Below, one piece after another: positions 5,514 through 52,537 of a stretch of 64,000 nucleotides of DNA. This stretch comes from Candidatus Curtissbacteria bacterium (GTDB lineage: Bacteria > Patescibacteriota > Microgenomatia > Curtissbacterales > GWA2-41-24): assembly GCA_024654445.1 (NCBI GenBank), contig JANLHP010000017.1:144524-208523 (forward strand). The letters run 5' to 3'. Below the pieces are notes generated by a model, which saw nothing but the letters and a program-made list of their open reading frames with translations, made no database searches and was not told the DNA's origin. The number at the start of each line of letters is the position of its first letter. Within the stretch, counting starts at the first letter, position 1. The position numbers and the translations under genes were made by a program.

Positions 5514-5560
5514 CTGGTAGATTCTACCAAATTCGAAGCACGAAATCCGAACCGGTAATC

Positions 5561-5676
5561 GTCATTCTGGGGAACGGAGCGACTCCAGAATCTGATTAAG
5601 GCTGATTCTGGACAAGCCCTTCGACTTCGCTCATGGCCTATTAAGGGCCGTGAGTTTATCGAACGGCCAGAGTGAC
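5561..5676. repeat. GC-rich palindromic repeat element, copy A1 (MITE/RPE-like), intergenic
   Basis: Terminal inverted repeats gtcattctgg...ccagagtgac. Internal hairpins gagcgactccagaatc/gattctgga. Core motif cccttcgacttcgctca shared with 12743-12849, 27139-27160 and 10172-10196. Confidence 0.6.
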
Positions 5677-5725
5677 AGTTTTGTTTCGAGTTTCGAAATT
5701 CTAATTTCGAGTTTACAATGTATTT

Positions 5726-6100
5726 GTGGTCAAACTTTTACCTGTAGCGGCATTGATTGCTTTTCTATCTCTATTTGGACTTTCTTGGATAATTGTCGTA
5801 GTAGATCCAACTGCTGCACCATGGTTTATTTTTGCGTCCTTTGTTTTTTTAGTATTTTCTTTTAGTTTTAGTTTTCTGAGTCTCGTTCTTTATTTTGTTA
5901 GGACCAGGTTTTATAAGCGCTATAGCGCAAGTTGGTATGTTAAAACGTCTTTTAAGATGTCACTTTTTATTTCCATTTTTATCGCGATTTGTGCTGCTCT
6001 TGCGATTTTAAAACAGGTGACAGTAATTAATATTGGACTTGGAATTGTCGCAGTTGTTCTTTTTGCCGTTTGGAGTTATTTGGGAAAGAGAGAAGGGTAA
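5726..6100 (+). CDS. hypothetical small multi-pass membrane protein
   Basis: 124-aa ORF (GTG start) with 3-4 hydrophobic helices. No recognisable family. Confidence 0.4.
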   Translation: MVKLLPVAALIAFLSLFGLSWIIVVVDPTAAPWFIFASFVFLVFSFSFSFLSLVLYFVRTRFYKRYSASWYVKTSFKMSLFISIFIAICAALAILKQVTVINIGLGIVAVVLFAVWSYLGKREG

Positions 6101-6116
6101 ATTTCTAATTTCTAAT
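6100..6116. repeat. conserved intergenic motif AATTTCTAATTTCTAAT (copy 1 of 4)
   Basis: Also followed by ttaggtcaattag, as at 54410. Confidence 0.5.
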
Positions 6117-6191
6117 CAATTCCTAAATTGAAGAATTTCTAAAATTTTTAGGTCAATTAGTAATTAGGTTAATTAGAAATTAAACTTGTCG

Positions 6192-6671
6192 TTACTCTGA
6201 GAGAATTATAATTCCTTCTCTCCAACCGCCGGGGTCTTTGATAACGTTGCCGTCTTTTTGAAGAATGTGCGAGGTGATGGCAATCGCCTTATTTTCAAAT
6301 TGTGGTGGTATTTGCCAATCCAGTTTGTAGGGAGATTTTTGAACCTTACCAATCATTTGCCATTTATTGTCGGCGTAAGTTTTTGCCCAGAACTGAACTT
6401 CTTGAGCAGAGCTAGGTTGGTCTACGGAAAGTTCTAAGTTAAGGGTCCCACCTCTTACAATTTCCCCGGCTTCCGGACTGGTGAGCCGTCCTCCGCTTGC
6501 GTTTCCTTGTTCATTTGTGATTTGAGTGGTTTGTCGGGAAAGGAGTGGTTTGCCAATTAAAAACAACGCAATTAGTCCAAGAATAATTAGAGCGGCAACT
6601 CCAAATGGATTAACTGGCCACCCTTTTTTACTTTTTTCTATAGGGCCTCGTTTTTCTGAGGATTCTTCCAT
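6192..6671 (-). CDS. hypothetical membrane-anchored protein
   Basis: 159-aa ORF with a single N-terminal TM (VAALIILGLIALFLI) and a soluble C-terminal domain. Confidence 0.45.
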   Translation of the reverse strand: MEESSEKRGPIEKSKKGWPVNPFGVAALIILGLIALFLIGKPLLSRQTTQITNEQGNASGGRLTSPEAGEIVRGGTLNLELSVDQPSSAQEVQFWAKTYADNKWQMIGKVQKSPYKLDWQIPPQFENKAIAITSHILQKDGNVIKDPGGWREGIIILSE

Positions 6672-7001
6672 TGTTCTTTATTATAACGGATTGGCATAAA
6701 TGCGAATTTTTCGCAATTTGTGCCAAACGGCTACATACTTCTCTTGGGTAGGAATTTGGAGAAGTCTATATCGCAATTAGCCTACTGTCAAATTGAATTG
6801 TTTTGAGATAGAATGGCTTTACTTTAAGGGGACACTAAAAGTTTCCCCTTAATATTCCTCTTCCCAAGAGGACGATTTCGGACTGGCGGAGCCAGTTCCA
6901 AAATCAATATTAGACAAAATTCGCCTAGCGAATTTTGAAGAGGAGGAACAAATTAAAATTTGATTTAGGGTTGAAATTTCTTCTGTTTTGAAAGCTGCTG
7001 T

Positions 7002-9305
7002 ATGAAAATCTTAAAAGTATTTACTGCCTTCCTTACCCTTTTTATTAATCTTGTCACTTTTGTCGGAGACGTAACTATTTGGGGGTTTCGAGGGATTTTT
7101 ATTTGGGTTGAGGGCTTAAGAAGAGTTCTGCGGATTCCAAAGAGGATGCCCAGTAGATTCAAGGGTGTTACTAAGGTCTTCCGACATCCCGTTATCCGTG
7201 AAGATTTCAGTTTTAAGGTGGGGCTTTTAATGATTTTTGTTTCAATGGGATTAATTTGGTTTGCGACAAAAGATCTTCCAAGCCCAAGACAGCTCGAAAC
7301 TAGAGAAGTGCCATTGACAACTAAAATATACGATAGAAATGGAGAACTACTTTTTAATGTGTACACAGACCAAAACAGAACTGTTGTTCCACTTTCCGAA
7401 ATTCCAGACAATTTAAAATACGCAACGATTGCGATTGAGGATCAGGATTTTTATAAACATAAAGGCTTCGATGTCTACGGCATTATAAGAGCAGCTAGAG
7501 AAACAGTGTTCCAAGGAGATATCCAAGGTGGTTCGACGATAACGCAACAGTTAGTTAAAAGCGCCTTTTTGACGCCGGAGCGAACTATAACAAGAAAGGT
7601 TAAAGAATTATATTTGGCTTTCCGGGTAGAAATGGCATACCCCAAAGACAGGATACTTGAAATGTATCTCAACCAAGTTCCGTATGGCGGAACGGCCTGG
7701 GGAGCAGCCGCAGCTGCCGAGCAATATTTCGGGAAAGATGTTAAGGATTTGACGCTCGCGGAATCCGCGCTTCTTGCGGGATTGCCCCAAGCACCAACTT
7801 ACTATTCCCCGTTTGGGCAAGATAAACAAAGGTCAGTCGAAAGACAGAGGCAGGTTTTGACAAGAATGGTTGAAGAAAATTACATCACAAGAGAGCAAGC
7901 CGAAGAAGCCGCAGCGCAACCGTTGGAATACAGGTCCGCGGCAACCGACATTAGGGCGCCTCATTTTGTAATGTTCGTCCGTGAATACTTGGCTGAAAAA
8001 TATGGCGAGGCTGCTGCCGCGCAAGGCGGGTTAAAGGTGACTACAACTCTTGAGTTGAAAGTTCAAGAGATGGCCCAAGGCCAAGTAACGGAAAACATCG
8101 ACAAGCTGAAAGCATTAAGAGTTGGAAACGGGGCTGCCGTAGTTACTAAACCACAAACCGGTGAAATCTTAGCGATGGTAGGGTCAAAAGACTTTTTCGA
8201 TACAGAAAATGACGGTAATGTAAACGTAACTGTTGCCAATAGACAACCAGGGTCTTCCATTAAACCAATTAATTACGCGACAGCGCTCGCAAAAAGACTT
8301 ATTACGCCGGCTACCGTGATTATGGACGTGCCAACTACTTTTTCGGGAGGACCACAACCTTACAGGCCTGTCAATTACGATGGTAAATTTCATGGTCCTG
8401 TTCAGGTAAGGTTCGCGCTTGCTAATTCTTACAATATTCCGGCTGTAAAGGTTTTAGGGTTAGTTGGCGTCGGCGAGATGATAAAAATGGCCAGGGAAAT
8501 GGGTATTACTACTTTTGAGGATGAGTCGCGATATGGGCTTTCTTTAACTTTAGGAGGAGGAGAGGTTAAGATGACAGAAATGGCGACTGCGTTTGGCGTT
8601 TTTGCCAACGAAGGTGTCCGCGTAGATCTTGTCCCCGTTTTGAAGGTTGAGGATTCCAACGGCAGAGTTCTTGAAGAGTTCAAGCCAAAAGCGGGTAGGC
8701 GAGTTCTTTCTCCGGAGATTGCATTTTTGATTTCTTCGATACTTTCCGACAACGGCGCAAGAAGTGCTGCTTTTGGCGCAAACAGCATGCTTAATATTAG
8801 AGGAAAGACTGTCGCTGTAAAAACCGGGACTACAGATGATAAGAGAGATAACTGGACGATTGGTTATAACCCTAGCTTTTTGGTTGTAACTTGGGTCGGC
8901 AATAATGACAACTCTCCGATGCATCCTTCACTTTCTTCCGGTGTAACCGGTGCTGCTCCTATTTGGAACGGAATAATGACGGCGCTTTTGAATGACAAGG
9001 TGAATGAAGCATTCAAAGTACCTTCGGGTGTTGTTGGCAAAGAAATTTGCACCTTGACCGGGGGGACAAAAAACGAGGGATGCAATAATCGATTTGAATA
9101 TTTCTTAGCTGGGACAGAGCCAACTAAAGATACATTCGCGAGATCTAAAGTGTGGATAGACAAGGAAACGGGAAAGGTTGTTCAGTCGGGATCACCAAAC
9201 GCGGAAGAGAAAGACGAAGTTATTATTTCGGACCCCTACTCTAAACAAGACTTCTGTGCGAGTTGTCCTAGGCCGGAGGCTTCCCCAAGTCCGCCCCCTA
9301 CATGA
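7002..9305 (+). CDS. class A penicillin-binding protein (GT51 transglycosylase + transpeptidase), PBP1A-like
   Basis: GT51 motifs EDQDFYKHKGFD and GGSTITQQLVK. Transpeptidase motifs SSIKP (SxxK) and KTGTT. N-terminal TM anchor. Confidence 0.85.
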   Translation: MKILKVFTAFLTLFINLVTFVGDVTIWGFRGIFIWVEGLRRVLRIPKRMPSRFKGVTKVFRHPVIREDFSFKVGLLMIFVSMGLIWFATKDLPSPRQLETREVPLTTKIYDRNGELLFNVYTDQNRTVVPLSEIPDNLKYATIAIEDQDFYKHKGFDVYGIIRAARETVFQGDIQGGSTITQQLVKSAFLTPERTITRKVKELYLAFRVEMAYPKDRILEMYLNQVPYGGTAWGAAAAAEQYFGKDVKDLTLAESALLAGLPQAPTYYSPFGQDKQRSVERQRQVLTRMVEENYITREQAEEAAAQPLEYRSAATDIRAPHFVMFVREYLAEKYGEAAAAQGGLKVTTTLELKVQEMAQGQVTENIDKLKALRVGNGAAVVTKPQTGEILAMVGSKDFFDTENDGNVNVTVANRQPGSSIKPINYATALAKRLITPATVIMDVPTTFSGGPQPYRPVNYDGKFHGPVQVRFALANSYNIPAVKVLGLVGVGEMIKMAREMGITTFEDESRYGLSLTLGGGEVKMTEMATAFGVFANEGVRVDLVPVLKVEDSNGRVLEEFKPKAGRRVLSPEIAFLISSILSDNGARSAAFGANSMLNIRGKTVAVKTGTTDDKRDNWTIGYNPSFLVVTWVGNNDNSPMHPSLSSGVTGAAPIWNGIMTALLNDKVNEAFKVPSGVVGKEICTLTGGTKNEGCNNRFEYFLAGTEPTKDTFARSKVWIDKETGKVVQSGSPNAEEKDEVIISDPYSKQDFCASCPRPEASPSPPPT

Positions 9306-9454
9306 CTTGAGGAGGATGATGATTCATTTAAAAAAAGCACACGATTTCGTAATTAACAAACAACTAATTTCATCACAATTTTCGCCATTGCGTATTTTGT
9401 GATGATTTTTCTATTTCGAGCACGCGGAACCTCAGCTTTCAAGCCGTGGGTAGT

Positions 9455-9832
9455 TTATTTCAAATGTTCTTTTATCCAGTCAGCGATTTCTTCAATCGTA
9501 GGTTTTTTGTTTTCGACCCAAAGAGCGAAGATAACGATCTCTTTGTTTGTCGCCTTAAAGCTTTTGCCGTTTAGTAACAAAAACTCAATCATCGAAATCG
9601 TTGCGGTTCTTTTATTGCCGTCTACAAATACATGATTTAGAAGTAAGGAATGAACAAGAGCTGCTGCTTTTAGGACTAGGTTTGGATAAAGATCTTTCCC
9701 CCCAAAGCTTGCTCGTGATCTTAAGACCGCAGATTCTAAAAGGCCTAGATCGCGAAGCCCTTGTAAACCACCGGTTGCCTCGACTAATTCAAAATGGATT
9801 TGGATAATATTTTGTGGCGTTAAAAACTTCAC
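9455..9832 (-). CDS. doc: Doc (death-on-curing) family toxin, Fic fold
   Basis: Motif HVFVDGNKRTA (Fic/Doc HxFxDGNKR). Matches the Doc pattern LLESA..R...FGG...YP......AAL. Overlaps the upstream gene by 4 bp. Confidence 0.8.
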   Translation of the reverse strand: MKFLTPQNIIQIHFELVEATGGLQGLRDLGLLESAVLRSRASFGGKDLYPNLVLKAAALVHSLLLNHVFVDGNKRTATISMIEFLLLNGKSFKATNKEIVIFALWVENKKPTIEEIADWIKEHLK

Positions 9833-10032
9833 TTTGAAGCGAGTTCTTCGAGGGCCGGTCGGTATTGATCTATCAACTTTTTCGTCAGATCGTGGATTTC
9901 ACGATCAGCAGTAAAAACTGGATCTACAGAGAAATTTACAGGATCGCCTACTTTGATACCTTTTTCTTCAAGAACTTTCTTCGGGATAGTCACGGCAACA
10001 GAATTGCCGACCTGAAAAGTTTTTTGGATCAT
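9829..10032 (-). CDS. AbrB/MazE/SpoVT-type (Phd-like) antitoxin
   Basis: 67-aa protein MIQKTFQVGNSVAVTIPKKVLEEKGIKVGDPV (swapped-hairpin DNA-binding fold pattern). A 4-bp overlap with doc gives a type II TA operon. Confidence 0.65.
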   Translation of the reverse strand: MIQKTFQVGNSVAVTIPKKVLEEKGIKVGDPVNFSVDPVFTADREIHDLTKKLIDQYRPALEELASK

Positions 10033-10216
10033 GTTAGTACAATGTTATAACACTGCGTCGATTTTGTCAACCTGTTTTATTAACTCGTTTTTGTCCTGGT
10101 GATTCGAATCAGCAGGACAAAATTGCTGTGCACTCTTACAATTCAACAATTTAACGATTAAACAATTTATTCTGTGAATTTGCCCTTCGATTTCACTCAG
10201 GGTAAATTTGTTGAGC

Positions 10217-10876
10217 CTATTCAACAAATTTAAAGGTTGAGAGCATTTGGTCGAAGATTTTTTCCGATTCAGCAGAGTACTCTATCTCTGAACCAATACC
10301 ACTTGAAAGAATGAATTCATAAACATTACCTTTTTGAGAAGAAAATACGTGTTTACTTGGTGTTTCTCCCAATGTCCCGACAAATACGAGCGATCTAGGC
10401 AATGGCGATTGAGTTTGTTTGAGGTTTGCTTTAAGAATTGAGATCACTGGTGTTTTTCCATCGACCCCAGTCTGTGTGAATACAGTCTCTAGAAATTCTT
10501 CCAGAGGAATATTCTGAGGGTTCGGATAAACATTTATAAGTATATTCTTGCTATTTACTGTTTCATCACTTGGATTATTAAAACTAACGATGTTCGATTT
10601 TTCCGAAAAGTTTGTCGGGCTAATTACTTTAAGGTCTGGGGGGTATTTCAAAGAAAAATTATATTCGGTATTTGTATATGTTATCCAGTTGGCAGGAACG
10701 TCCATAACTACATCTACGGGTACTGCTGATTTATCAGTAGGTTGTTCGTGGGCTTTTCGGATCAGGTTAGAGTTGACGTAGATAGTTGCTGCTGTGATTA
10801 GCAGAATCACGGCAAGGCCGATCATTACTGGGGCAGGAATGAAGCCCCGCCTACCGGCGGGCAAGACTTTTCTCAT
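10217..10876 (-). CDS. hypothetical secreted/membrane-anchored protein
   Basis: 219-aa ORF with N-terminal TM (IGLAVILLITAATIYV). No family recognised. Confidence 0.4.
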   Translation of the reverse strand: MRKVLPAGRRGFIPAPVMIGLAVILLITAATIYVNSNLIRKAHEQPTDKSAVPVDVVMDVPANWITYTNTEYNFSLKYPPDLKVISPTNFSEKSNIVSFNNPSDETVNSKNILINVYPNPQNIPLEEFLETVFTQTGVDGKTPVISILKANLKQTQSPLPRSLVFVGTLGETPSKHVFSSQKGNVYEFILSSGIGSEIEYSAESEKIFDQMLSTFKFVE

Positions 10877-10920
10877 ACTTTTATCATTTCATCTTTAAGA
10901 AAAAGAGTCAAAGGTAATAG

Positions 10921-11062
10921 ATCCTATCGCTTCGCTCCAGGATGACAACATTCAATTCTGATTGTCGTTCTGGAGGGAGTACTACGACCGATAAGAAAGC
11001 TTGTTTCTCGCAGACTCGAAATAGAATCTCGACTCGCTACGCTCGCTCGAAGAATATATAAT
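10921..11062. repeat. GC-rich palindromic repeat element, composite/degenerate copy B1
   Basis: Carries cgcttcgctccaggatgac (reverse complement of the TIR gtcatcctggagcgaag). Shares internal block tttctcgca.actc.aaatagaatctc with copy B2 (13493-13638). Confidence 0.5.
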
Positions 11063-11069
11063 TTAGGTC

Positions 11070-12488
11070 ATGAACAGAATTTATGTGACTACGGCTATTC
11101 CGTATGTAAATGCTGCGCCGCACATTGGGTTTGCCCTGGAAACAGTGCAGGCAGACGCAATCGTACGGTTTTACCGTGCACAGGGATGGGATGTATTGTT
11201 TTCTTCCGGAACAGACGAAAACAGTCTTAAAAATGTACAGGCGGCGAAAGCAGAAGGACTAAAAGTTCAGGAACTGGTCGACAAATACGCAAGGCAGTTT
11301 GAAAATCTAAAAGATGCGCTTAATCTTTCATGGGACGTTTTTAATAGAACTAGCCAAAAACATCATTTTGAGGGAGCACAAAAATTCTGGAGTTTATGCC
11401 GGAGCGAAGATATATATAAAAAGAAGTATCGTGGCCTTTACTGCGTTGGGTGCGAAGCGTTTTATACGGCAGCCGAGATCGCGGATGGTAAATGTCCTGA
11501 TGGACATTCGAACATAGAGGAAATCGAGGAAGAAAATTATTTTTTTAAACTTTCAAATTACCAAAAGTTCCTTGAGGATCTAATTTCTAAAGATAAACTG
11601 AAAATTGTTCCCCGGACCAAAAAGCATGAGGTTCTTTCCTTTATTAAAGGTGGGCTTGAGGATTTCAGCATCTCGAGGTCTGTCGAGAGAGCGAGGGGTT
11701 GGGGTGTTCCTGTTCCAGGAGATGAATCTCAAGTGATGTACGTTTGGTTCGACGCGCTGACTACTTATTTAACTGCTCTAGGGTTTGGAACAGACGACGA
11801 TTTATACAAAAAATATTGGGTGGAAAACCCTAACCGTCTGCATGTAATTGGTAAAGGGATAATAAGATTCCACGCAGTTTATTGGCCGGCAATACTTGCT
11901 TCTGCTGGGATAAAACTTCCGACAGAAGAATTTGTTCACGGATATATAACCGTTGAAGGGCAAAAGATTTCGAAAACTTTGGGGAATGTAATTGACCCAT
12001 TTGATTTGGTAGAAAAATTTGGGGTTGAAGCAGTCAGGTACTACTTGTTGCGCGAGATTCCGTCTTGGGGAGACGGAGATTTTTCGATCACTAGATTTAA
12101 GGATTTGTATAACGGAGAACTCGCTAACGGAATTGGTAATTTGGTGGCGAGAGTTGCAAGACTTGCAGCAGACACAAATCTGAGTTTGCCGGAAAAAAAG
12201 AATTTTACATTTAAAAAAGCAGTTTCTGATAATCTTAAAACCTTTCGGTTCGACCAGGCAATAATGGCTCTTTGGAATGAGGTCTCGATTTTGGATAAGA
12301 AAATTAACGACGAAAAGCCTTGGGAGTTAGAAGGCGAAGAGCTTAAAAAATCCATTACCCCGATAGCGCAAGAGATAAGAGAAATCGCGTTTAATCTTTC
12401 GCCATTCTTGCCTCAAACGAGTGGGAAAATTTTGAATCAATTCACCGGAAGAATTTCCGCAGAAAAACCAATTTTCCCAAGGATTTAA
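11070..12488 (+). CDS. metG: methionyl-tRNA synthetase (short form)
   Basis: Class I aaRS. N-terminal YVTTAIPYVNAAPHIGFA (HIGH region). KMSKS-like KISKTLGN. Zn knuckle CVGCE...CPDGH. Confidence 0.9.
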   Translation: MNRIYVTTAIPYVNAAPHIGFALETVQADAIVRFYRAQGWDVLFSSGTDENSLKNVQAAKAEGLKVQELVDKYARQFENLKDALNLSWDVFNRTSQKHHFEGAQKFWSLCRSEDIYKKKYRGLYCVGCEAFYTAAEIADGKCPDGHSNIEEIEEENYFFKLSNYQKFLEDLISKDKLKIVPRTKKHEVLSFIKGGLEDFSISRSVERARGWGVPVPGDESQVMYVWFDALTTYLTALGFGTDDDLYKKYWVENPNRLHVIGKGIIRFHAVYWPAILASAGIKLPTEEFVHGYITVEGQKISKTLGNVIDPFDLVEKFGVEAVRYYLLREIPSWGDGDFSITRFKDLYNGELANGIGNLVARVARLAADTNLSLPEKKNFTFKKAVSDNLKTFRFDQAIMALWNEVSILDKKINDEKPWELEGEELKKSITPIAQEIREIAFNLSPFLPQTSGKILNQFTGRISAEKPIFPRI

Positions 12489-13483
12489 TGAAATTAATTG
12501 ATACTCATGCCCATTTGGACCTGCCTGCCGGCAGGCAGGTTTCTGATTTGGATGGGTGGCTTTCGCGTGCAAAAGAAGCAGGAGTTGGAAAAATAATTTG
12601 TGTGGGGACTTCGATTGATGCTTCTAAAAAGTGTATCGAGATCGCGGAAAAACATTCAGATGAAGACTTAGAGATTTTTGCCAGCTGCGGGATTCACCCG
12701 GAAGATGGAAAAGACGACATTAAAAAATATGGCCACTCCTCTGTCATTCTGAGGAGCGAAGCGACTCCAGAATCAGATTCTGGACAAGCCCTTCGACTTC
12801 GCTCAGGGCCTATCAAGGGCCGTGAGTTTACCGAATCGGCCAGAATGACGGATAGTCTGGCTGGTTGCATGGCTGAGTTAAAAAAGGTAGCTCAATCGTC
12901 GAAAAAAGTTGTGGCAATTGGAGAGTGCGGATTGGATTACCGTTTAACAACTGACAACGAACAACTGACAACTGACGAAGAGAAAGAGTTTCAGAGAAAG
13001 CTTTTTAAAGACCAGATAAAACTCGCAGCTGATCTGAATTTACCTTTAATTATTCATTGCCGTAATGGCTGGGATGAAATATTCGACCTATTAACAATTA
13101 ACGATAGACAGAGTCCTGCGGTCCTCGCTAACGCTGCGGGCTTACAACAATCAACACTAAAGGGCGTTTTTCACTCCTGGACTGGAGACTGGACTGCTGC
13201 CGAAAAAGCGCTCGGTTTGGGTTTTTACATTTCTTTTTCTGGAATTTTAACTTTTCGGAACGCTCCTCTTATCCAAGAGGTCGCAAGAAAGGTGCCGCTT
13301 GAAAGGGCTGTTGTGGAAACGGATTCCCCTTTCCTTTCGCCAGAACCTTTGCGCGGCAAGAAAAATGAACCTAAAAATGTTAGAATTACAATCGAGTTTC
13401 TAGCCGAACTGCGAAATACTTCCCTTGAAGAAATTGCTGACGTGACGGCTCGAAATGCCGAAAAGTTATTCGGGTTAAGTTAG
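12488..13483 (+). CDS. tatD: TatD-family metal-dependent hydrolase/DNase carrying an in-frame repeat-element insertion
   Basis: MKLIDTHAHLD..., IGECGLDY, ETDSPFLSPEPLRGKKNEP and FYISFSGILTFRN match TatD. An extra ~40-aa segment (VILRSEATPESDSGQALRLRSGPIKGREFTESARMTD) is encoded by repeat copy A2. Confidence 0.8.
   Translation: MKLIDTHAHLDLPAGRQVSDLDGWLSRAKEAGVGKIICVGTSIDASKKCIEIAEKHSDEDLEIFASCGIHPEDGKDDIKKYGHSSVILRSEATPESDSGQALRLRSGPIKGREFTESARMTDSLAGCMAELKKVAQSSKKVVAIGECGLDYRLTTDNEQLTTDEEKEFQRKLFKDQIKLAADLNLPLIIHCRNGWDEIFDLLTINDRQSPAVLANAAGLQQSTLKGVFHSWTGDWTAAEKALGLGFYISFSGILTFRNAPLIQEVARKVPLERAVVETDSPFLSPEPLRGKKNEPKNVRITIEFLAELRNTSLEEIADVTARNAEKLFGLS
12743..12849. repeat. GC-rich palindromic repeat element copy A2, inserted in-frame within tatD
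   Basis: gtcattctgaggagcgaagcgactccagaatcagattctggacaagcccttcgacttcgctcagggcctatcaagggccgtgagtttaccgaatcggccagaatgac. Near-identical to copy A1 (5561-5676) with the same TIRs. Confidence 0.65.
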
Positions 13484-13492
13484 CCCATCCAT

Positions 13493-13638
13493 GTCATTCC
13501 GGAGCGAAGTTCTGCAATTTGGCAGAACGAAGTGAAACGAGAACGTATTTCTCGCAAGCTCAAAATAGAATCTCTAGTTTCAGATCCTATTCGAAGAAAA
13601 GCTTTGCTTATCGGTCGCTTCGCTCCCTCCAGGATGAC
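13493..13638. repeat. GC-rich palindromic repeat element copy B2
   Basis: Clear TIRs gtcattccggagcgaag ... cttcgctccctccaggatgac. Internal hairpin gttctgc/gcagaac. Shares a middle block with B1. Confidence 0.6.
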
Positions 13639-13650
13639 ATCAAATTAAAT

Positions 13651-15144: not shown

Positions 15145-15274
15145 ATTTTAAGGAAGTAACCCTGTTCCTTGCTTCGCTTACGCTACGCAAGCAAATACGT
15201 GTAACCGAAAAGGTCTGATCGTCCCCTATCAAACTTGACTTTGGAATTTTCACTTGGTACCCTACTTGCTTCTG

Positions 15275-17586: not shown

Positions 17587-17587
17587 A

Positions 17588-18318: not shown

Positions 18319-18343
18319 TTTGGACCTGTGACCCTATACTAAA

Positions 18344-19663: not shown

Positions 19664-19665
19664 TT

Positions 19666-21144: not shown

Positions 21145-21147
21145 GTT

Positions 21148-22622: not shown

Positions 22623-23593
22623 TCTGGTTGCCCTTTTGGATTTTTGTTAGCGCACGCCCGCGTCAATGGCTTAAAAATTTAGCACTTTTTGCTCCACTTG
22701 TTTTTGAAGGCGTTTTTTTTGACCCCATTAAATTTTGGCTCGTCGTTTTAGGCTTTTTTATTTTTTCGCTTGCAACTTCTTCCATATATATAATCAACGA
22801 TGTAATTGACGTCGAAAAAGACAGGGCTCATCCATTTAAGAGGAAACGCCCAATTGCAGCCGGAAGGATACATCCTAACGTTGCTCTTATTATTGCGATT
22901 TTGGGACTTGCGCTGGCGATATTTGTTTCGAGCCGTTTTTCGCCATTTTTTACTTTGGCGCTTTCCGCCTACGCAATTTTGCAGATACTTTACTCGCTAT
23001 TTTTAAGGTCGATTATTCTAATCGACGTTATGGCGATTGCGTCGGGATTTTTGCTAAGAGTTTTCGCCGGAGCGGTTTTGATCGACGCGCACGTTACTGT
23101 TTGGTTTATTTTGACGGTTGCAAGTCTGGCGCTATTTTTGGCTATCGGAAAAAGAAGGTCGGAACGGACTCTTTTGATGGGTTCGGAGGAGAAGTCGCTT
23201 GCGACAAGATCTATTCTTCTTCATTATCCCGAGTCACTTCTGGATTCGTTGACAGTAATGTTTGCAACGGCTACGTGGTTTTCTTATACGATGTTTACTT
23301 TTTTGCAGCCGCCGCCAGGTTCCGGCGCACAGGTTTTGGTGTTGTTTGGAGATTATCTGCCTAGGACGTTTTTGGCTTCTAAATGGCTGATGGTGACTGT
23401 GCCTTTTGTTATTTATGGGGTAATGAGATACATGTACGTCATTCACGAAAAAAAAGAAGGGGAATCACCGGAGCGAGTATTATTGTCTGATATTCCTTTA
23501 CTTTCGACAGTGCTGTTCTGGATCGTAATCGTCTTTTTTGTAATCTACGGCGGAGAATTCTTACCTCAAAAGTTAATTCAGTATTTGCAGTAA
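22583..23593 (+). CDS. UbiA-family prenyltransferase, decaprenyl-phosphate phosphoribosyltransferase (DPPR synthase)-like
   Basis: RPRQWLKNLALFAPL and NDVIDVEKDRAHPFKRKRPIAAG (UbiA NDxxDxxxD motif in a DPPRS-like context). Start uncertain (ATG 22583 overlaps the upstream gene by 40 nt). Confidence 0.65.
   Translation: MAKYEFTTKGPQIIWLPFWIFVSARPRQWLKNLALFAPLVFEGVFFDPIKFWLVVLGFFIFSLATSSIYIINDVIDVEKDRAHPFKRKRPIAAGRIHPNVALIIAILGLALAIFVSSRFSPFFTLALSAYAILQILYSLFLRSIILIDVMAIASGFLLRVFAGAVLIDAHVTVWFILTVASLALFLAIGKRRSERTLLMGSEEKSLATRSILLHYPESLLDSLTVMFATATWFSYTMFTFLQPPPGSGAQVLVLFGDYLPRTFLASKWLMVTVPFVIYGVMRYMYVIHEKKEGESPERVLLSDIPLLSTVLFWIVIVFFVIYGGEFLPQKLIQYLQ
23549..23593. repeat. direct repeat DR1 (3' end of UbiA-family gene)
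   Basis: ggcggagaattcttacctcaaaagttaattcagtatttgcagtaa. Repeated at 24245-24289 (about 38/45 identical). Both encode GEFLPQKL(I/L)QYLQ*. Confidence 0.7.
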
Positions 23594-23596
23594 TTA

Positions 23597-24208: not shown

Positions 24209-24244
24209 GGGGACTTTTCTATGTACAGCTATCTTGATGGGGGC

Positions 24245-24289
24245 GGCGGGGAATTTTTACCTCAAAAGTTACTTCAGTATCTTCAGTAG
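24245..24289. repeat. direct repeat DR2 (relic copy of UbiA-gene 3' end)
   Basis: ggcggggaatttttacctcaaaagttacttcagtatcttcagtag. Matches DR1. Confidence 0.7.
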
Positions 24290-24290
24290 T

Positions 24291-24602
24291 TTATCTATGA
24301 GATTCGACTATTTTTCTCCCTATTTCTCCTGATTGATAAGCTTTCAATAGGTTATTTCTTCCCCTAAATCCCATTCTGTCTAAGGCCGCGAGTAGTTCTC
24401 TTTCTTCTTTCCGTGGGTTTTGTGTTGTTAAGGAAACAGTTAGCGGTACAGACACTTCCGCATGTCTATTTATTCTGGTGCGTAACTGAAATGGTAGGTC
24501 AAACTCGCTGCCTAACTGTTTACCAAACTTAACCATTGCTGGTCTTGCAAGATGTCTAAGAAGAAGATTGTCGTTATTTATGACTGTTGATGGCATGAAC
24601 AT
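24291..24602 (-). CDS. hypothetical protein
   Basis: 103-aa ORF, no family recognised. Lies 8 bp downstream of the 24611..25189 gene on the same strand. Confidence 0.35.
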   Translation of the reverse strand: MFMPSTVINNDNLLLRHLARPAMVKFGKQLGSEFDLPFQLRTRINRHAEVSVPLTVSLTTQNPRKEERELLAALDRMGFRGRNNLLKAYQSGEIGRKIVESHR

Positions 24603-24610
24603 ACTATCAT

Positions 24611-25189: not shown

Positions 25190-25239
25190 AATCTCGGATT
25201 ATACTCCTCTCCCTGTGTGTTTGTAAACTATGGGTCGGA

Positions 25240-25686
25240 TTATTGAGCTTTGATCTTGAAGCTAACGTTTGAGGAAGCGGAGGCTTCTTCGGAGAGAAGG
25301 CTGAGAGTTGTGGATGTTTGAGGTGAAAGAGTGGCAGTTATGTCTGGATTTTTGAAGTCCTGGCCGAAAAAGACTTTGGCCTCCCCTGCTGTTTTTTCGA
25401 TTGAGTAAGTTTTAGTCTCCTCTGTCGGGTTATTTAGGATCAAAATACCCAAGAATGCTTGGCTCTCTCCGAATTTCGTGGCTGTTAGCTTGTAGGTTTC
25501 GCCCTCCTGGGAAAAGCTTACGTTCGGGAATTTGTCTATCTGGGGCACGATAAGGTAGTGTGAAGCGCTTTTTACGCCCGCAACTTGGGCGAATTTCGAG
25601 GCAAAATAGAAGGGGAAGGCCAAAAGCGCTAAAAGCAGGACTACGGCTGAGAAGTTGGCAAAGGTCCGAAATAGTGAGTGTTTCAT
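25240..25686 (-). CDS. hypothetical secreted protein
   Basis: 148-aa ORF with signal peptide/TM (AVVLLLALLAFPFYFA). A 4-bp overlap with the upstream gene suggests an operon. Confidence 0.4.
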   Translation of the reverse strand: MKHSLFRTFANFSAVVLLLALLAFPFYFASKFAQVAGVKSASHYLIVPQIDKFPNVSFSQEGETYKLTATKFGESQAFLGILILNNPTEETKTYSIEKTAGEAKVFFGQDFKNPDITATLSPQTSTTLSLLSEEASASSNVSFKIKAQ

Positions 25687-26222
25687 GCTTGTTTTGATAT
25701 TTCTATCTCGTTTTCGATATCCACCGACAGGATCCAGGTAAAGTTAGCAGCAATTAGTAACGCGGCTATGGAGATCATGGGGTGCGTAACTTTCAGGATG
25801 ACGGTGGAAACGAGGAGAAATCCAGTCGTTAGCCACAGAAATGCGAGCCAAATGACGGCCTGGTGGTATAGATGGTAGGTAGGAGCTACAAACCCTTCCA
25901 TGTTCATAGAGGCTAACTTGGCATGAAAAGATGGCTTTATATGGCTTTCGTGGAAAAAATGGGCACGAACCAGAACATATAAGTTCCCGACGACGACGAC
26001 GGTTAGCATAGTGATATTCGAGTAGTTTTCCGCTATTATGTAGTCTTTGAGCGAGCCGAAGCTAATTGAGGGTAAGACGCCTAACACTGTGCCTCCGGCA
26101 ACCGTGAAAGACAGCCCGAGGGCGTAAGTCGCTATAAAAAAGCCGATCATTTTACCCACAATTAAGGCTGCGGCGGGCACTATTGCTTCGTCTATTAACT
26201 TTATAATGGATTTTGACAGCAT
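25683..26222 (-). CDS. hypothetical polytopic membrane protein
   Basis: 179-aa ORF with about 5 TM helices. Confidence 0.45.
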   Translation of the reverse strand: MLSKSIIKLIDEAIVPAAALIVGKMIGFFIATYALGLSFTVAGGTVLGVLPSISFGSLKDYIIAENYSNITMLTVVVVGNLYVLVRAHFFHESHIKPSFHAKLASMNMEGFVAPTYHLYHQAVIWLAFLWLTTGFLLVSTVILKVTHPMISIAALLIAANFTWILSVDIENEIEISKQA

Positions 26223-26262
26223 AGATACATATTATCAGAATTACAGGGAAATTTGATCGGGA

Positions 26263-27084
26263 TTAATTCCTGGGCAGTTTCTTTGTGTATTCCGTTGAGA
26301 CCCAGCCTTGTTTCCCCTCGAATTTTATCTGAACCCAACCTTGAATTTCTTGTAATATTTCAAGCTGGTCGCCTGTTTTTACTCTGCCTATTTCCGGGCT
26401 GGTGAGCGTAGATTCACGCCTGACGCGAAGGAACCCAAGCGGAGTCGCCAAAATTTCAACTTTCTCAGGCTCTTCCGGGAGTCCGGGAGCAGCTGTAACT
26501 CCTTTGGCTATTTCGGACGCGAGAGTTACGTGCGCGACAACTTGGAAATCTGGGGACGTTTTAACGGTTATCGTTCTTTCTAAATAGCCACGATGGGAAA
26601 GTATTAATTTATGCTCTCCTTCTTCTATTTCTTCAATCTGGATGGGTGTCTTCCCATATGATTTGCCGTCGATGGCAACATCAGCCTCGTCAGGCGTGGA
26701 TGTAACAAAAATACCCTTTTTACCAGGCTGGAGGCTAAGTATTTCGCCGGATTGGGCTAAAAAGTTGTTATTGAGTTCGCGATTGACGACTGTGAGGGTA
26801 TTTTCGACCAAAGTTACCTTTTCTACGTATGTCGCCTCGCCCGCGGTTATTTTAACCATATACTCCTGGTCTTTGAGTTGGTCAGAGAAAAAGGGGGTTT
26901 TGCCGACATGTTTCCCGTCCAGGAATATTGAAGATTGGGGCGTTGAGGTTACTTTTAAGGCTGCGGCTTTGGGGCCACCCACGACTGTGCAGCCAGTTAG
27001 GAGTGTAACAAGTGTCAGGTAACATGTGACATGTAGGAGCTTTCTTGACACCTGACACTTGATACTTGATACATACTCAGGCAT
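26263..27084 (-). CDS. PEGA-domain lipoprotein with C-terminal SH3b-like domain
   Basis: Lipobox LLTGC. Two PEGA-like repeats (IFLDGKHVGKTP, VAIDGKSYGKTP). C-terminal GWVQIKFEGKQGWVSTEY (SH3b-like). True start probably downstream of the annotated M. Confidence 0.55.
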   Translation of the reverse strand: MPEYVSSIKCQVSRKLLHVTCYLTLVTLLTGCTVVGGPKAAALKVTSTPQSSIFLDGKHVGKTPFFSDQLKDQEYMVKITAGEATYVEKVTLVENTLTVVNRELNNNFLAQSGEILSLQPGKKGIFVTSTPDEADVAIDGKSYGKTPIQIEEIEEGEHKLILSHRGYLERTITVKTSPDFQVVAHVTLASEIAKGVTAAPGLPEEPEKVEILATPLGFLRVRRESTLTSPEIGRVKTGDQLEILQEIQGWVQIKFEGKQGWVSTEYTKKLPRN

Positions 27085-27117
27085 TGGATTAAAGGTACCA
27101 CCTAGCTGAGCTTCGGT

Positions 27118-27270
27118 GCAAGCGTGAGCCCTTCGACTTCGCTCAGGGTCATGACTATTTGAGGCTAATTCCTGCGGCGGGAGCTCATGTGAAAAGATTA
27201 TAGGTCTGCTTCGAGGCTGGAAGGTAATTCGAGGCTATTTGTGCTCAGGCTCGAGCGTGAGATTGAAGCT
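27118..27270. repeat. GC-rich repeat element (family C1) carrying core motif cccttcgacttcgctcaggg
   Basis: 27139-27160 gagcccttcgacttcgctcagggtc matches the core of copies A1/A2. Followed by internal direct repeats cttcgaggct / attcgaggct / gctcgagcgtgag. Confidence 0.5.
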
Positions 27271-27435
27271 ATCCCCTAGCCACGATTTTTAGCTCCATTT
27301 AGGCCTCATTTAGCTTACTATGGGACTTGACAAAGGAGCCTTACTATGCTATACTTCACGCTTGTAAGATCTCCACTATGGGCTTCTGCCCAGGATTCCC
27401 ACAAATATATATGTGGGTTTTTAGTGGGAAAATAT

Positions 27436-28167
27436 ATGAAAAACATACAAATACTACAACCTGCCATATCTGAGCTTAAAGTCCAGGCTCAGGCACAAGC
27501 TGAAAAGGCTCTCAAAAGGGCTCGTCAAATCGAGGCTAAACAAATAGCCCTTAACGGCTTAAAGTTCACCAAGTTTCAACTTTCTATTAGACCAAGGCTT
27601 AGATTGCTTGCCAAGGTACTTCCTGTACTTACCATTGCTTTTATAGCGACAAGCCAAATTGCTTCATTTGTTGAGCCTAAGACCGCTGAAGTAAAAATCA
27701 ACGGCCAGCCTATTTTGGTTGCTGAGCACGTTGAAGGCGATGCCAACGTTGTTGAGATTGCACAAAGTGTAGGCGCTAAGTTGTCTCCTTTTGAGTTCAG
27801 AATGCCTGTTGGCGGAAATATTTCACAAGGATTTAGTGGATACCATAGAGCTTTCGACATTACGTCCCCTCTTGGTACGCCTATTAAGCCAGTTGGTGCT
27901 GGTACAGTTGAGTTTGCCGGCTTCGTTTCCGACGGTAAAGGTAACTTAGTTGTTATTGACCACGGTGACGGGCTTAAAACTGCTTATGCTCACATGGGTA
28001 AGATTTACGTTAAACCTGGTTCTACAGTTAATACGCAAACTGACCTTGGTACTATTGGTCTTACGGGTCGTACTACAGGAGCCCATGTCCACTTTGAGCT
28101 TTACGATAATGGTGTTGCGGTAAACCCTGGAAACTTACTCCCGAGCGCAGAAGGCAACCTAAAGTAA
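27436..28167 (+). CDS. M23 family peptidoglycan metalloendopeptidase (LytM-like)
   Basis: HRAFDI, DHGDGLKTAYAHM and GAHVHFEL (M23 HxxxD ... HxH). TM anchor. The ORF track extends upstream to 27346; ATG 27436 (MKNIQ) is preferred. Confidence 0.75.
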   Translation: MKNIQILQPAISELKVQAQAQAEKALKRARQIEAKQIALNGLKFTKFQLSIRPRLRLLAKVLPVLTIAFIATSQIASFVEPKTAEVKINGQPILVAEHVEGDANVVEIAQSVGAKLSPFEFRMPVGGNISQGFSGYHRAFDITSPLGTPIKPVGAGTVEFAGFVSDGKGNLVVIDHGDGLKTAYAHMGKIYVKPGSTVNTQTDLGTIGLTGRTTGAHVHFELYDNGVAVNPGNLLPSAEGNLK

Positions 28168-28174
28168 GCGCGAT

Positions 28175-28753
28175 TTAAAGCTTGCGGATAGGGGTATCGT
28201 CTTCCTCTTTGGTATCGTCTCTGTCTGATAGTTCCTCGATCATAATCTTAAATTTCACTGGGTCTCCTATATTTTCGATAACAATTTCTCTTTGATCGTA
28301 GCCAGCGGTAATTACTACTAAATTTCCATTATTATAAAGGTACCGCTGCGCTACTGATTGTTCCACTGTCACGTGCGTAATACGCTCGAGTGGAGCGCTT
28401 AGGATTTTTCTGGAAAATATGCCCGTTATTATCAAAAGGCGTTTATTTGTCAGGGCGTAAATATACGATTGTTTTTGCCTGATAAGCTGGCTGGAGCTTT
28501 TTAGTTTTGCGATCAACACAAAAAGCGGGAAGATTCCAAAGTATTTTAGGTACGAATAACCTTGGATATCAAAAAAGCCAAGGAGCATTAAAAAAGAAGC
28601 GTAAAACCAGATTAATGGGATTATGAAGATTAGAATAACCTTGATCCAGAAATAGCGTTTCCCTATAGATGAGACTAGCTCTGGCTTTTCATCGCTCGTC
28701 AAGAACTTGGCGAGTCTTTTTTTTTGCTTTTCGGAGGGGGATTTATTGGCCAC
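28175..28753 (-). CDS. membrane protein with bacterial PH-like (bPH_2/YdbT-like) domain
   Basis: Two TM helices then NKRLLIITGIFSRKILSAPLERITHVTVEQS...LVVITAGYDQREIVIENIGDP, which fits the bPH_2 pattern. Confidence 0.4.
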   Translation of the reverse strand: MANKSPSEKQKKRLAKFLTSDEKPELVSSIGKRYFWIKVILIFIIPLIWFYASFLMLLGFFDIQGYSYLKYFGIFPLFVLIAKLKSSSQLIRQKQSYIYALTNKRLLIITGIFSRKILSAPLERITHVTVEQSVAQRYLYNNGNLVVITAGYDQREIVIENIGDPVKFKIMIEELSDRDDTKEEDDTPIRKL

Positions 28754-28796
28754 GTTTCCAGTTTATCACAATATTTTTTGCTATCATGGAGATCGT

Positions 28797-29420
28797 ATGG
28801 GTTCTAGGATACTAGGCAAAATTATCGCCGCGATTTTTATAATTGCTCTTCTCGACCTCGTTTATTTGAACTGGTGGGTGGTGCAAAATCAAAGTTCAAA
28901 GATCAAAGATCAAAATTTAGAAGCCGATCGGAAGATTGAAATAAGTCCAACTCCCCTTGCTTCAGCTTCCCCGACTCCGCCACCTGCGGGTATTAAAACG
29001 GTCGAAACTAAGACGGTTGTCGAAAAAGAAACACAAATCATAGTTCAGACTGCGCAAAAAGAGATATTTGTTCCTGTTGGTTCGGGCACAACAAATAGCA
29101 ATAGTTATGCAGATGTTGCGGGAATGGAAGTGACGATTGATACCGGGAAATATGGGCAGATTGACTCTGTGTTTTTTGAGGCTTCTGTGTGGGTAACTGG
29201 CGGAAACGGCAGAGGTTATGCCCAGCTTAAGAATATTTCGGACAATAATCCTTTTATCGAGAGCACAATTTCCAGTGCGAGCGGGACGGGAGATGTCCAA
29301 ACTTCAGGCAAGATTCCGCTTCCAAGCGGAAACAAGAAGTACGGAGTGCGGGGCAAAACGGATATAACCGAGTTTGCCGTGCACATAGATAACGCACGAA
29401 TTAAAATTACATTAAAGTAA
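28797..29420 (+). CDS. hypothetical secreted/membrane-anchored protein
   Basis: ATG 28797 gives MGSRILGKIIAAIFIIALLDLVYLNWW (TM) then a soluble domain. No family recognised. Confidence 0.45.
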   Translation: MGSRILGKIIAAIFIIALLDLVYLNWWVVQNQSSKIKDQNLEADRKIEISPTPLASASPTPPPAGIKTVETKTVVEKETQIIVQTAQKEIFVPVGSGTTNSNSYADVAGMEVTIDTGKYGQIDSVFFEASVWVTGGNGRGYAQLKNISDNNPFIESTISSASGTGDVQTSGKIPLPSGNKKYGVRGKTDITEFAVHIDNARIKITLK

Positions 29421-29519
29421 GGTAAAAGAGATTAGAGTTAAGAGTTTAGGGGAAAAGACGGCAGTCGGTTTGTTTTTGGGGACAAAGAGACAGAGTTGGA
29501 AAGGGTAACAGAAACTGAA

Positions 29520-29650
29520 AATAAGGCTCTTCGACTCACTTCATTTGCTCCGGGGAATATTGACTGAGCTTGTCGTACTTCGATTTCGCTCAGTACGACC
29601 TCCTCGAGTCTGAGCGACTTCGGAGTCGAAGACCTGAGTGTAAACCGAAT
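29520..29650. repeat. degenerate GC-rich repeat element (family C2)
   Basis: Contains cttcgatttcgctcag (core variant) and hairpins gtcgtac/gtacgac and cgacttcggagtcg. The start ctcttcgactcacttcatttgctccgg is the reverse complement of a TIR-like ccggagc.aag. Confidence 0.35.
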
Positions 29651-39879: not shown

Positions 39880-39933
39880 ATGAACATTTTAGGCGTTGAA
39901 ACGACCCGTTCGATTAAACTCAGGGTTGTTTCT
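39880..39933 (+). other. relic duplicate of the tsaD 5' end (17-codon ORF MNILGVETTRSIKLRVVS*)
   Basis: atgaacattttaggcgttgaaacgacc encodes MNILGVETT versus tsaD MNVLGIETT at 40019. Similarity is at protein level with synonymous differences. Confidence 0.4.
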
Positions 39934-52484: not shown

Positions 52485-52537
52485 CTCGACAAGCTCGAAA
52501 ATCAAATTTTAATGACAAATTAAAAATTATTCTTTTA

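Follow-up and report, generated by a model that had tools for sequence, protein, structure and literature searches.

Tagged palindromic repeats in a Curtissbacteria genome as probable relatives of CGTC repeats and Ssn-related motifs

Short palindromic repeats are dispersed among the genes of a 64-kb window of Candidatus Curtissbacteria DNA (contig JANLHP010000017.1), the window being the whole stretch of Candidate Phyla Radiation (CPR)/Microgenomates DNA that was analysed (42.3% GC). These loci are probably lineage-specific members of the superfamily of CGTC-tagged repetitive extragenic palindromic (REP) sequences and Ssn-related motifs (SRMs; NTS-like), built into composites, and their hairpins would be nicked as single-stranded DNA (ssDNA) by Ssn nucleases and spread as passengers. 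A first-pass annotation of the window had listed REP-like elements and Rickettsia palindromic elements (RPEs) among its readings, and both likenesses are borne out: the palindromes carry (C/T)GTC tags, their stems start with A-T, and one copy lies in frame in a gene, as RPEs do.

Hairpin modules, CGTC repeats and a candidate nuclease

Two types of module recur in the window. One is the head, of the form (C/T)GTC-ATTCYG...CRGAAT-C; the other is the core, stem-GAGCGAAGTCGA-stem, whose + strand sequence is CCCTTCGACTTCGCTCAGGG. In a head, (C/T)GTC is followed by a stem starting AT (ATTCTG.., ATCCT..), an inner GAGCGAAGCGA-type loop, the return stem and C. The core is a variable 4-8 bp stem that closes the loop GAGCGAAGTCGA, with the loop variants GAGCGAAATCGA, GAGTGAAATCGA, and GAGCTTGTCGA. 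Family A elements (107-116 nt) join a left hairpin, GTCATTCTG..CAGAATC, to a right module of ~75 nt, GATTCTGG-ACAAG-core-..-CCAGAATGAC, in which the core hairpin is nested. The reverse complement of this right module is again GTC-ATTCTGG...CCAGAAT-C, and family A is therefore a tail-to-tail dimer whose outer tags lie on opposite strands. Family B (13492-13639) is a palindrome of ~146 nt with a head at either end, and at 10920-10985 two facing heads form a strong hairpin (ssDNA fold -12.7 kcal/mol, z -4.4). The single dispersed family that had been proposed thus resolves into composites of small hairpin modules rather than one family of miniature transposable elements with inverted repeats (MITEs).

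When the left module of family A is folded as ssDNA, only the 4-nt tag and a 3-nt tail are left unpaired. The consensus fold of the right module, from five sequences, retains the outer stem and the core hairpin as well as a third helix, in which one compensatory change is seen (GGCAG/CTGCC to GGCCG/CGGCC). The conserved parts are the unpaired tag and the loop, while the stems covary, a pattern that fits recognition by a protein.

CGTC-tagged REPs comprise four families, CGTC-1 to CGTC-4, with CGTC, TGTC or CCTC as tag and stems that begin A-T; they are mostly dimers, are sometimes intragenic, and were reported from five phyla, and no dedicated transposase was found for them (Di Nocera, De Gregorio & Rocco 2013, PMC3733652). 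According to the same study, CGTC-1 is dRS3 in Neisseria, and in R. conorii CGTC-1 and CGTC-4 are RPE-6 and RPE-4, respectively. The gene ssnA is flanked by the NTS of Neisseria (CGTCATTCCCGCGMAVGCGGGAATCYRG), which forms a subset of dRS3, and more broadly by SRMs; its product is a 94-aa GIY-YIG (cd10448) enzyme that binds the hairpin only as ssDNA, not as RNA, and makes a strand-specific cut a few nt upstream (Chenal et al. 2025, PMC11893778). For NTS cleavage, the trinucleotide upstream of the palindrome matters most, and for binding the C that follows it; an SRM lies near 71% of ssn homologs and on either side of 42%, and in Neisseria the Ssn system modulates transformation (PMC11893778). 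Chenal et al. describe the NTS-ssnA-NTS architecture as insertion sequence (IS)-like and draw a parallel with REP/RAYT. CPR bacteria are not among the five phyla of PMC3733652, nor are they mentioned in PMC11893778.

A YGTC tag is carried by seven element heads in the window (5560+, 10947-, 10963+, 12742+, 12850-, 13492+, and 13639-), and an eighth match, at 25803, lies outside any element. Both the ATTCTG.../...CAGAAT and the ATCCT/AGGAT stems start with A-T, as in CGTC repeats, and are 9-10 bp long with one bulge, compared with the 8-9 bp of the published definition. GTC directly on the 5' side and C directly on the 3' side of the palindrome are present at five hairpins: 5560-5594, 12742-12776, 12850-12774(-), 5677-5602(-), and 10947-10920(-). 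The left module at 5560-5594 reads CGTCATTC...GAATCTG, and its flanks match the NTS consensus exactly. Neither a GTAG tag nor Y1_Tnp was found, the tags being CGTC or TGTC and the scanned window open reading frames (ORFs) giving no Y1_Tnp match. Literature searches for palindromic or MITE repeats in CPR bacteria, and for peptide or DNA strings of the elements, returned nothing relevant.

The core is far from confined to this lineage. In a scan of 596 Gb, where about 4 chance occurrences of a 20-mer are expected by our estimate, the exact 20-mer core turned up in representatives of at least 120 species, which cover most bacterial phyla. Among the matches listed are Acidobacteriota, Sphingomonadaceae, Flavobacteriia, Cyanobacteria, Chloroflexota, Nitrospirales, Verrucomicrobiota, Spirochaetes, and several CPR lineages. 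The listed core loci hold 62 more modules with the same loop types and other stems (TCCT, GGCT, TGCT, TGGT...), against ~4 in shuffled sequence. When phages and plasmids were searched by blastn with the whole element, only the short core matched.

Several of these occurrences adjoin genes of the Ssn type. On a Sphingomonas parapaucimobilis plasmid, the core lies at the 3' end of a gene for a 107-aa 'GIY-YIG nuclease family protein', and an inverted pair of the same hairpin lies on the upstream side, such that the core hairpin is present on both flanks. The ssn-like genes of Planktothrix agardhii and of two Methylobacterium species are bracketed by GTCATTCTGAG.. / CCTCATCCTGAGG.. hairpins. A profile search returned thousands of Ssn-family homologs of ~95 aa, and 33 of the best 120 carry module-encoded C-terminal tails directly after the domain; 18 of these 33 tails read LRLRSG, which is the frame used in the TatD insert described below. 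The likely protein partner of the repeats is accordingly judged, from these comparisons, to be an Ssn-type GIY-YIG single-strand nuclease rather than a transposase.

Under the mechanism proposed here, the hairpins would, as in Neisseria and Wolbachia, form in ssDNA that is exposed at replication or enters the cell by transformation. An Ssn-family GIY-YIG nuclease of ~95 aa would bind them and nick on the 5' side of the tag, a few nt away. The repeats themselves would be non-autonomous and would have spread as passengers of an SRM-ssn-SRM unit, as REP/REPINs depend on RAYT, and the unit copied may be the tail-to-tail dimer with its outward tags on opposite strands. Copies within genes would be expected to persist only if they are divisible by three in length and contain no stop codon.

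Several observations weigh against assigning the repeats to this class and to an Ssn partner. Ssn is known to cut ssDNA but is not known to mobilise repeats, and the transposition step is drawn by analogy with RAYT and REPINs. The structure of the right module rests on five sequences and one compensatory pair, and lone core hairpins with a 4-bp stem are thermodynamically marginal as ssDNA. The 4-5 nt loop and CCA-like tail that define CGTC repeats do not occur in the elements: the left-module loop CGAAGCGA has 8 nt (counting GC/GC and G.A pairs would make it a GAA triloop), a 55-nt insert sits in the right module, and the tails are CTG/CAG. Likewise, the published SRM pattern, HGTCWYN(0-2)YYVSBRHN(0-5)WNVSBRGN(0-2)RNCYNB, matches none of the window elements; its single match in the window (30756-30787; 0.17 expected) is unrelated to them. 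Finally, searches by tblastn, a three-sequence hidden Markov model, phmmer, and a signature regular expression, all of which detected their positive controls, found no Ssn-like ORF in the window, in the syntenic 21-kb locus of a second Curtissbacteria genome, or in ~120 kb of other CPR loci, and none of the best 120 database matches to Ssn is labelled CPR. The Pfam scan of non-overlapping window ORFs also returned no GIY-YIG domain.

Repeat loci, their statistical support and their folding

Eight loci had been claimed in the first-pass annotation, and self-comparison and shuffling indicate that seven of them hold repeats beyond chance, the eighth (15160-15195) failing. The two family A copies, 5561-5676 and 12743-12849, are 84% identical over 117 columns in blastn (E 1.7e-29). 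The loci 10921-11062 and 13493-13638 have a head region of ~50 nt in common in inverted orientation and a 27-nt block in direct orientation; their local score of 41 was reached in 0 of 300 shuffles (16.3 +/- 2.2). The cluster at 29525..29635 scores 27 against family A (0/300 shuffles), with fold z of -4.2 as RNA and -2.9 as ssDNA. At the level of motifs, the head GTCRTYCYGRRG is present 6 times in the window versus 0.15 expected, and the loop, with at most one mismatch, 5 times versus 1.2 expected. A strict scan for complementary stem + GAGC-N2-5-CGA + stem found 4 modules versus 0.15 expected, including 29572-29599, where the same loop is closed by an unrelated 8-bp stem, and 52480-52502. The 22-mer AGCCCTTCGACTTCGCTCAGGG is exact at 12787 and 27127, is found with 1-3 mismatches at 5615 and 10181, and has a version with covarying stem at 29572-29599. 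The features are collected in Table 1.

Table 1. Repeat elements and modules in the 64-kb window
Feature	Position	Strand	Description
Family A, copy 1	5560..5677	+	Intergenic, between divergent rmuC (4518-5513, -) and ORF 5726-6100 (+); E 1.7e-29 versus copy 2; z -5.9
Left module of copy 1	5560-5594	+	CGTC-ATTCTGGGG..CTCCAGAAT-CTG, then a 9-nt extra spacer
Right module of copy 1	5604-5677		Head TGTCACTCTGG on - strand; core 5615-5636 within
Solitary core hairpin	10183..10202	-	CCCT-GAGTGAAATCGA-AGGG, degenerate loop, 1 mismatch; 86% match to repeat family; 3' of PsbP_2-like gene 10217-10876 (-), upstream of antitoxin/Fic(Doc) operon
REP hairpin	10920..10947	-	TGTC-ATCCT-GGAGCGAAGCGAT-AGGAT-C; head-to-head with 10963..11053 across a 17-nt spacer; joint hairpin 14-bp-plus
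Family B half-element	10963..11053	+	TGTC-GTTCTGGAGGGAG..CGACCGATAAG..TTTCTCGCAGACTCGAAATAGAATCTC; score 41, 0/300 shuffles; ends in -10-like GAATATATAATT just upstream of metG (11070)
Family A, copy 2	12742..12850	+	In frame in TatD ORF 12488-13483; encodes V86-T121 (VILRSEATPESDSGQALRLRSGPIKGREFTESARMT); z -5.5
Left module of copy 2	12742-12776		
Right module of copy 2	12776-12850		Head CGTCATTCTGG on - strand; core hairpin 12788-12809
Family B, full element	13492..13639	+	Long palindrome with TGTC-AT heads at both ends (GTCATTCCGGAGCGAAG ... CTTCGCTCCCTCCAGGATGAC); fills TatD-GT2 spacer; z -3.1
Single tagged core hairpin	27124..27155	-	GTCATGA-CCCT-GAGCGAAGTCGA-AGGG-CTCAC; between divergent PEGA/SH3 gene (26263-27084, -) and M23 peptidase gene (27346-28167, +)
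Composite palindromic cluster	29525..29635	.	Outer inverted repeat GGCTCTTCGACTC / GAGTCGAAGACC; upstream of DUF5654 gene
Inner hairpin of cluster	29572-29599	-	GTCGTACT-GAGCGAAATCGA-AGTACGAC; same loop, different 8-bp stem
Second module of cluster	29608-29633	+	GTCT-GAGCGACTTCGGAGTCGA-AGAC, expanded loop
Weak degenerate relative	39898..39932	-	GAAACAACCCT-GAGTTTAATCGA-ACGGGTCGTTTC; between DUF192 gene and tsaD; 73%; membership uncertain
Extra copy	52480..52502	-	ATTTTC-GAGCTTGTCGA-GAAAAT (TCGACAAGCTC loop variant); between Wzy_C and R3H/KH (Jag-like) genes

Some of the earlier claims about these loci need adjustment. Membership of the stretch at 15160-15195 finds no support, as its score of 16 against any copy was equalled in about 55 of 300 shuffles. 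Within 27118-27270 only the 32 nt at 27124-27155 belong, and 27155-27270 is unrelated to families A and B. Two further copies lie beyond the range originally described, at 52480-52502 and, weak and degenerate, at 39898-39932. The elements are GC-rich as stated (44-59%), although their enrichment over the window is modest. The window has ~9 loci in its 64 kb, and one element is met about every 3.5-7 kb; the suggestion that this is unusual for a small genome finds no support, and REP-rich genomes such as those of Neisseria and Rickettsia have a similar density.

The location of elements at gene boundaries was described correctly for rmuC, metG, GT2, and the M23 peptidase gene, but the gene downstream of 29520-29650 is the DUF5654 gene and not a toxin-antitoxin operon; the Fic/Doc toxin operon adjoins the copy at 10181. 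Pfam assigned the scanned non-overlapping ORFs of the window to ordinary housekeeping and cell-envelope functions, including rmuC, class A penicillin-binding protein (PBP), Fic/Doc, metG, TatD, GT2, GH18, M23, GroEL/ES, CTP synthase, leucyl-tRNA synthetase, YidC, dnaA, and dnaN. Of the eight TCGA-type loops, seven (5621, 10187, 12793, 27133, 29580, 39904, and 52484) have GAGC..TCGA on the - strand and one (29608) has it on the + strand. This bias is suggestive, not significant, and is uninterpretable since GC skew does not flip at dnaA. The dnaA (55239-56597) and dnaN (56899-58038) genes lie beside the stretch of lowest GC (54-56 kb, 37% GC), which suggests that 54000-58100 includes oriC; GC skew is positive on both sides of dnaA/dnaN and the cumulative skew never turns.

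Folding and location also bear on whether the repeats act as structured RNA, that is, as transcribed hairpins serving as terminators, mRNA stabilisers, processing sites, or small RNAs. Folds stronger than those of shuffled sequence were obtained at five loci, with RNA z of -5.9 at 5561, -5.5 at 12743, -4.2 at 29520, -3.1 at 13493, and -2.2 at 10921, while 15160-15195 (z -0.4) and 27118-27270, which is unstructured as a whole (z +0.36), did not exceed it. Moreover, several copies (10183, 13492, 29525, and 52480) are found just past the 3' end of a gene or between two genes of the same strand, and Di Nocera et al. argue that many REPs are transcribed (PMC3733652). Nevertheless, Rfam gave 0 matches at gathering thresholds across the 64 kb and 0 at E<=5 across 5000-30500. 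A T-run does not follow any of the elements, nor do terminator-like sites centre on them; in a promoter and terminator scan, counts were near shuffle expectation and no T-tailed terminators were seen at elements. The copies occur in both orientations relative to transcription, 3 of 7 intergenic copies lie between divergent genes, and one is in coding sequence. In addition, covariation evidence is minimal, what is conserved is the unpaired tag and loop, and SsnA does not bind RNA (PMC11893778). The structured-RNA reading of the first-pass annotation is therefore highly doubtful. Hammerhead-like, tRNA T-arm-like and K-turn readings of the loop, which were based on resemblance, were set aside and had no support in Rfam.

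Other repeats and features were observed in the window. A near-perfect 34-nt palindrome, TTTTGTCCTGGTGATTCGAATCAGCAGGACAAAA, at 10089-10122, lies just upstream of the putative antitoxin/Fic(Doc) operon and may represent an operator, or else a hairpin without relation to the REPs. AT-rich, short intergenic repeats of the TAATTTCTAATT type occur at 5681-5719, 48858-48896, 52431-52483, and 54376-54409, one of them adjoining family A copy 1. A ACAACTGAC-type repeat (58036-58063 and 58446-58480) encloses a '23S rRNA-intervening sequence protein' gene (58120-58437) as inverted arms. Two copies of a 48-nt direct repeat (23548-23595 and 24244-24291; 88% identical, E 2e-9) have a spacing of 696 nt, one being located at the 3' end of a UbiA-family gene and the other following the next ORF. 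Lastly, 59371-63951 holds a 1049-aa ORF without an exact-protein record that adjoins a TraG/VirB4-like P-loop ATPase (62797-63951), and these genes may be part of a secretion or DNA-transfer apparatus.

In-frame copies and turnover between related genomes

One copy had been placed inside a gene, and this is family A copy 2, which lies in frame in TatD. The element of 107 nt adds 108 nt of coding sequence, beginning at the first base of codon 86, and together with the one base that follows it makes up 36 codons with no stop. For a random insert of 36 codons in a random frame, simple arithmetic gives a chance of ~6% of being both in frame and stop-free. The segment V86-T121 is missing from 17 homologs, and the invariant TatD residues all lie outside it. 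In the AlphaFold2 model, TatD is a confident TIM barrel (mean pLDDT 84, pTM 0.82), and residues 85-114 have pLDDT < 50. As the insert has no stop, is absent from homologs, and leaves the modelled barrel intact, it is predicted to be read through and tolerated as a disordered loop. Other Microgenomates TatD proteins carry related inserts at other sites (SGQALRLHSGQLKGSESYRTARMTK; ..NPSTSSGQA..; ..LRSAQDDK..; ..GMTKE..).

The TatD gene contains two further repeats. A perfect 22-nt palindrome in its N-terminus (ACCTGCCTGCCGGCAGGCAGGT, 12519-12540) encodes an extra PAGRQ that is missing in most homologs; it is a second, different palindromic in-frame insert and is terminator-like in a simple scan. 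A 31-nt stretch related to the ACAACTGAC-type repeat, at 12945-12976, encodes LTTDNEQLTTD.

Comparison with the syntenic 21-kb locus of another Curtissbacteria genome (L127; gene order PBP-Fic-MetG-HAD-TatD-GT2) indicates how the elements differ between relatives. The L127 MetG is 78% identical to that of the window and has an additional stretch of exactly 24 nt (CCTTCGACTTCACTCAGGACAGGT, PSTSLRTG) where the window sequence runs on without a break, and most of the larger indels between orthologs of the two loci are module-encoded. A family B-like element lies upstream of metG in both, in opposite orientation; the TatD-GT2 spacer is filled by an element in the window, with no such element in L127; and a family A dimer is present near the Big_7 gene in both, inverted relative to each other. 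Overall, the position or orientation of elements differs at nearly every site between the two loci, which implies, as far as sequence comparison can tell, turnover since the two genomes split. L127 also contains, at 5075-5185, a full inverted pair of tagged hairpins (GTCATTGCGAGG..GACGAAGCAATC / GATTGCTTCGC..CTCGCAATGAC), a REPIN-like doublet with a stem unlike any in the window.

In the CPR loci L126, L127, L128/L129, and L130 the right module is met again, either by itself or combined with another left hairpin. It is found alone at another TatD site in L126 and also in L130, and full dimers are present in L127 and L128. A metagenome scan for the right module returned 3 loci, 2 of them unique, which is too few for insertion-site statistics. 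The comparison of related genomes, put forward in the first-pass annotation as a way to define insertion sites and target duplications, thus yielded differences in presence and orientation but no consistent duplication. Inspection of the flanks at 5561-5676 and 12743-12849 revealed no target-site duplication, and the candidates elsewhere are of unequal length: AAACT (L127, 951-1039), AAAG (right module of L126, 1921-1994), and the 8-nt AGCGTGAG (27121-27128 / 27254-27261).

These flanks are relevant to the possibility that the repeats are classical MITEs, i.e. internally deleted IS copies mobilised by a DDE transposase encoded elsewhere that binds GTCATTCTG.../...CAGAATGAC terminal inverted repeats (TIRs). 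Families A and B do have inverted repeats of 9-17 nt at their ends, AAACT and AAAG flank two copies elsewhere, the 8-nt repeat occurs at 27121 and 27254, and the lack of a transposase in the window is what would be expected of non-autonomous elements. Indeed, no transposase or integrase domain was detected by Pfam in the scanned non-overlapping ORFs, in agreement with the earlier statement that none is nearby. However, neither family A copy of the window has a flanking direct repeat, and the candidates for a duplication measure 4, 5, and 8 nt. As for the 'TIRs', these are complete tagged REP hairpins, two outward-facing heads, that also occur singly (10920-10947 and 27124-27155), and a hairpin of 24 nt, too small for a TIR MITE, acts alone as a unit of insertion or deletion. 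In four other taxa, the genes bounded by these head and loop motifs encode GIY-YIG proteins and not transposases, and Di Nocera et al. found none of the IS200/RAYT transposase genes to be flanked by CGTC repeats (PMC3733652). Given the outward heads, the inconsistent duplications, and the 24-nt smallest unit, a transposase-mobilised MITE, as initially suggested, is very unlikely.

It is also unlikely, if somewhat less so, that the copies are inert relics, the decaying remnants of an old REP expansion whose nuclease was lost, which would change only by mutation, slippage, and recombination. In keeping with decay, no Ssn was found in any CPR sequence searched, the copies are diverged (84% between family A copies; degenerate loops at 10183 and 39898), and extinction of CGTC families, possibly approaching for want of a dedicated enzyme, has been proposed (PMC3733652). 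In contrast, the core 20-mer is still exact at two window loci, the right module is conserved across unrelated metagenomes, and the differences at nearly every site between two syntenic Curtissbacteria genomes imply turnover since their split. The search for a partner in this genome covered 64 kb only.

A bolder reading, which we regard as speculative and rather improbable, is that CPR hairpins multiply without Ssn or with an unrecognised partner. They would then be a major source of in-frame indels in essential proteins, in precise units down to 24 nt and with no target duplication. In addition, a recognition signal used bacteria-wide would be marked by the 12-nt loop GAGCGAAGTCGA, which stays the same between Sphingomonas and Curtissbacteria as its stems covary, and its reader and insertion process would go beyond cleavage by Ssn.

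Significance and comparison with known systems

If correctly assigned, the repeats extend the class of CGTC REPs and Ssn-related motifs to the CPR. Novelty is modest and lies in the CPR host, the composite dimers, the frequent in-frame insertions, and the lack of a visible nuclease partner. Hairpins appear to be written into housekeeping proteins of tiny genomes (TatD, MetG, and others in the sister genome) as tolerated disordered loops, and the precise in-frame gain or loss of 24 nt poses a concrete mechanistic question of how small hairpins move. In practical terms, the repeats inflate and fragment gene calls in CPR metagenome-assembled genomes, giving rise to spurious 'hypothetical proteins' and insert-bearing orthologs, and they could be used as markers of recent genome turnover. 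CPR cells are thought to rely on DNA uptake, and an Ssn nuclease, if present, would bear on how they handle single-stranded DNA.

The elements resemble TIR MITEs such as Correia and Nezha in being 100-150 nt long, non-coding, bounded by terminal inverted repeats, and dispersed at gene boundaries. Unlike those MITEs, they have no consistent target duplication and no parent IS in the window, and their ends are hairpin units that also occur singly. With REP/REPIN-RAYT systems they share short tagged palindromes, inverted doublets as the likely mobile unit, recognition of hairpins in ssDNA, and a single-copy protein gene flanked by its own repeats; the differences are a CGTC/TGTC tag instead of GTAG and a linked protein that is GIY-YIG (Ssn) instead of a Y1 HUH transposase.

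RPEs, reportedly described by Ogata and colleagues in 2000, form Rickettsia-specific families with units of ~100-150 bp. Like RPEs, the repeats described here are palindromes inserted in frame in housekeeping genes, where they add peptide without destroying the protein. In contrast to RPEs, the units inserted in the window and L127 span 24-108 nt and the host is of a free-living or episymbiotic CPR lineage. The link to RPEs is made via the equation of RPE-4 and RPE-6 with CGTC-4 and CGTC-1 in PMC3733652.

Similarity to CGTC REPs is found in the unpaired CGTC/TGTC tag, the A-T start of the stem, frequent inverted pairing, and the absence of a transposase alongside. As in those families, most units are intergenic and some lie wholly within ORFs, including tRNA synthetase and repair genes. 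The window elements differ in their longer inner stem and loop (an 8-nt loop or a nested 55-nt insert versus 4-5 nt), in their CTG/CAG rather than CCA tails, in their CPR host, and in the tail-to-tail arrangement of family A, which is called rare in PMC3733652.

Finally, in comparison to NTS and SRMs, the left-module flanks are identical to those of the Neisseria NTS (CGTCATTC...GAATCYR), the determinants of cleavage and binding are present, and the motifs that flank the ssn-like genes of Sphingomonas, Methylobacterium, and Planktothrix are the heads and core seen in the window. In contrast, the SRM pattern is unmatched and no ssn gene is visible in the window. The two also differ in their relation to coding sequence: 2% of NTS are intragenic in N. 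meningitidis 8013 (PMC11893778), whereas in-frame copies account for most of the larger ortholog indels in these CPR genomes.

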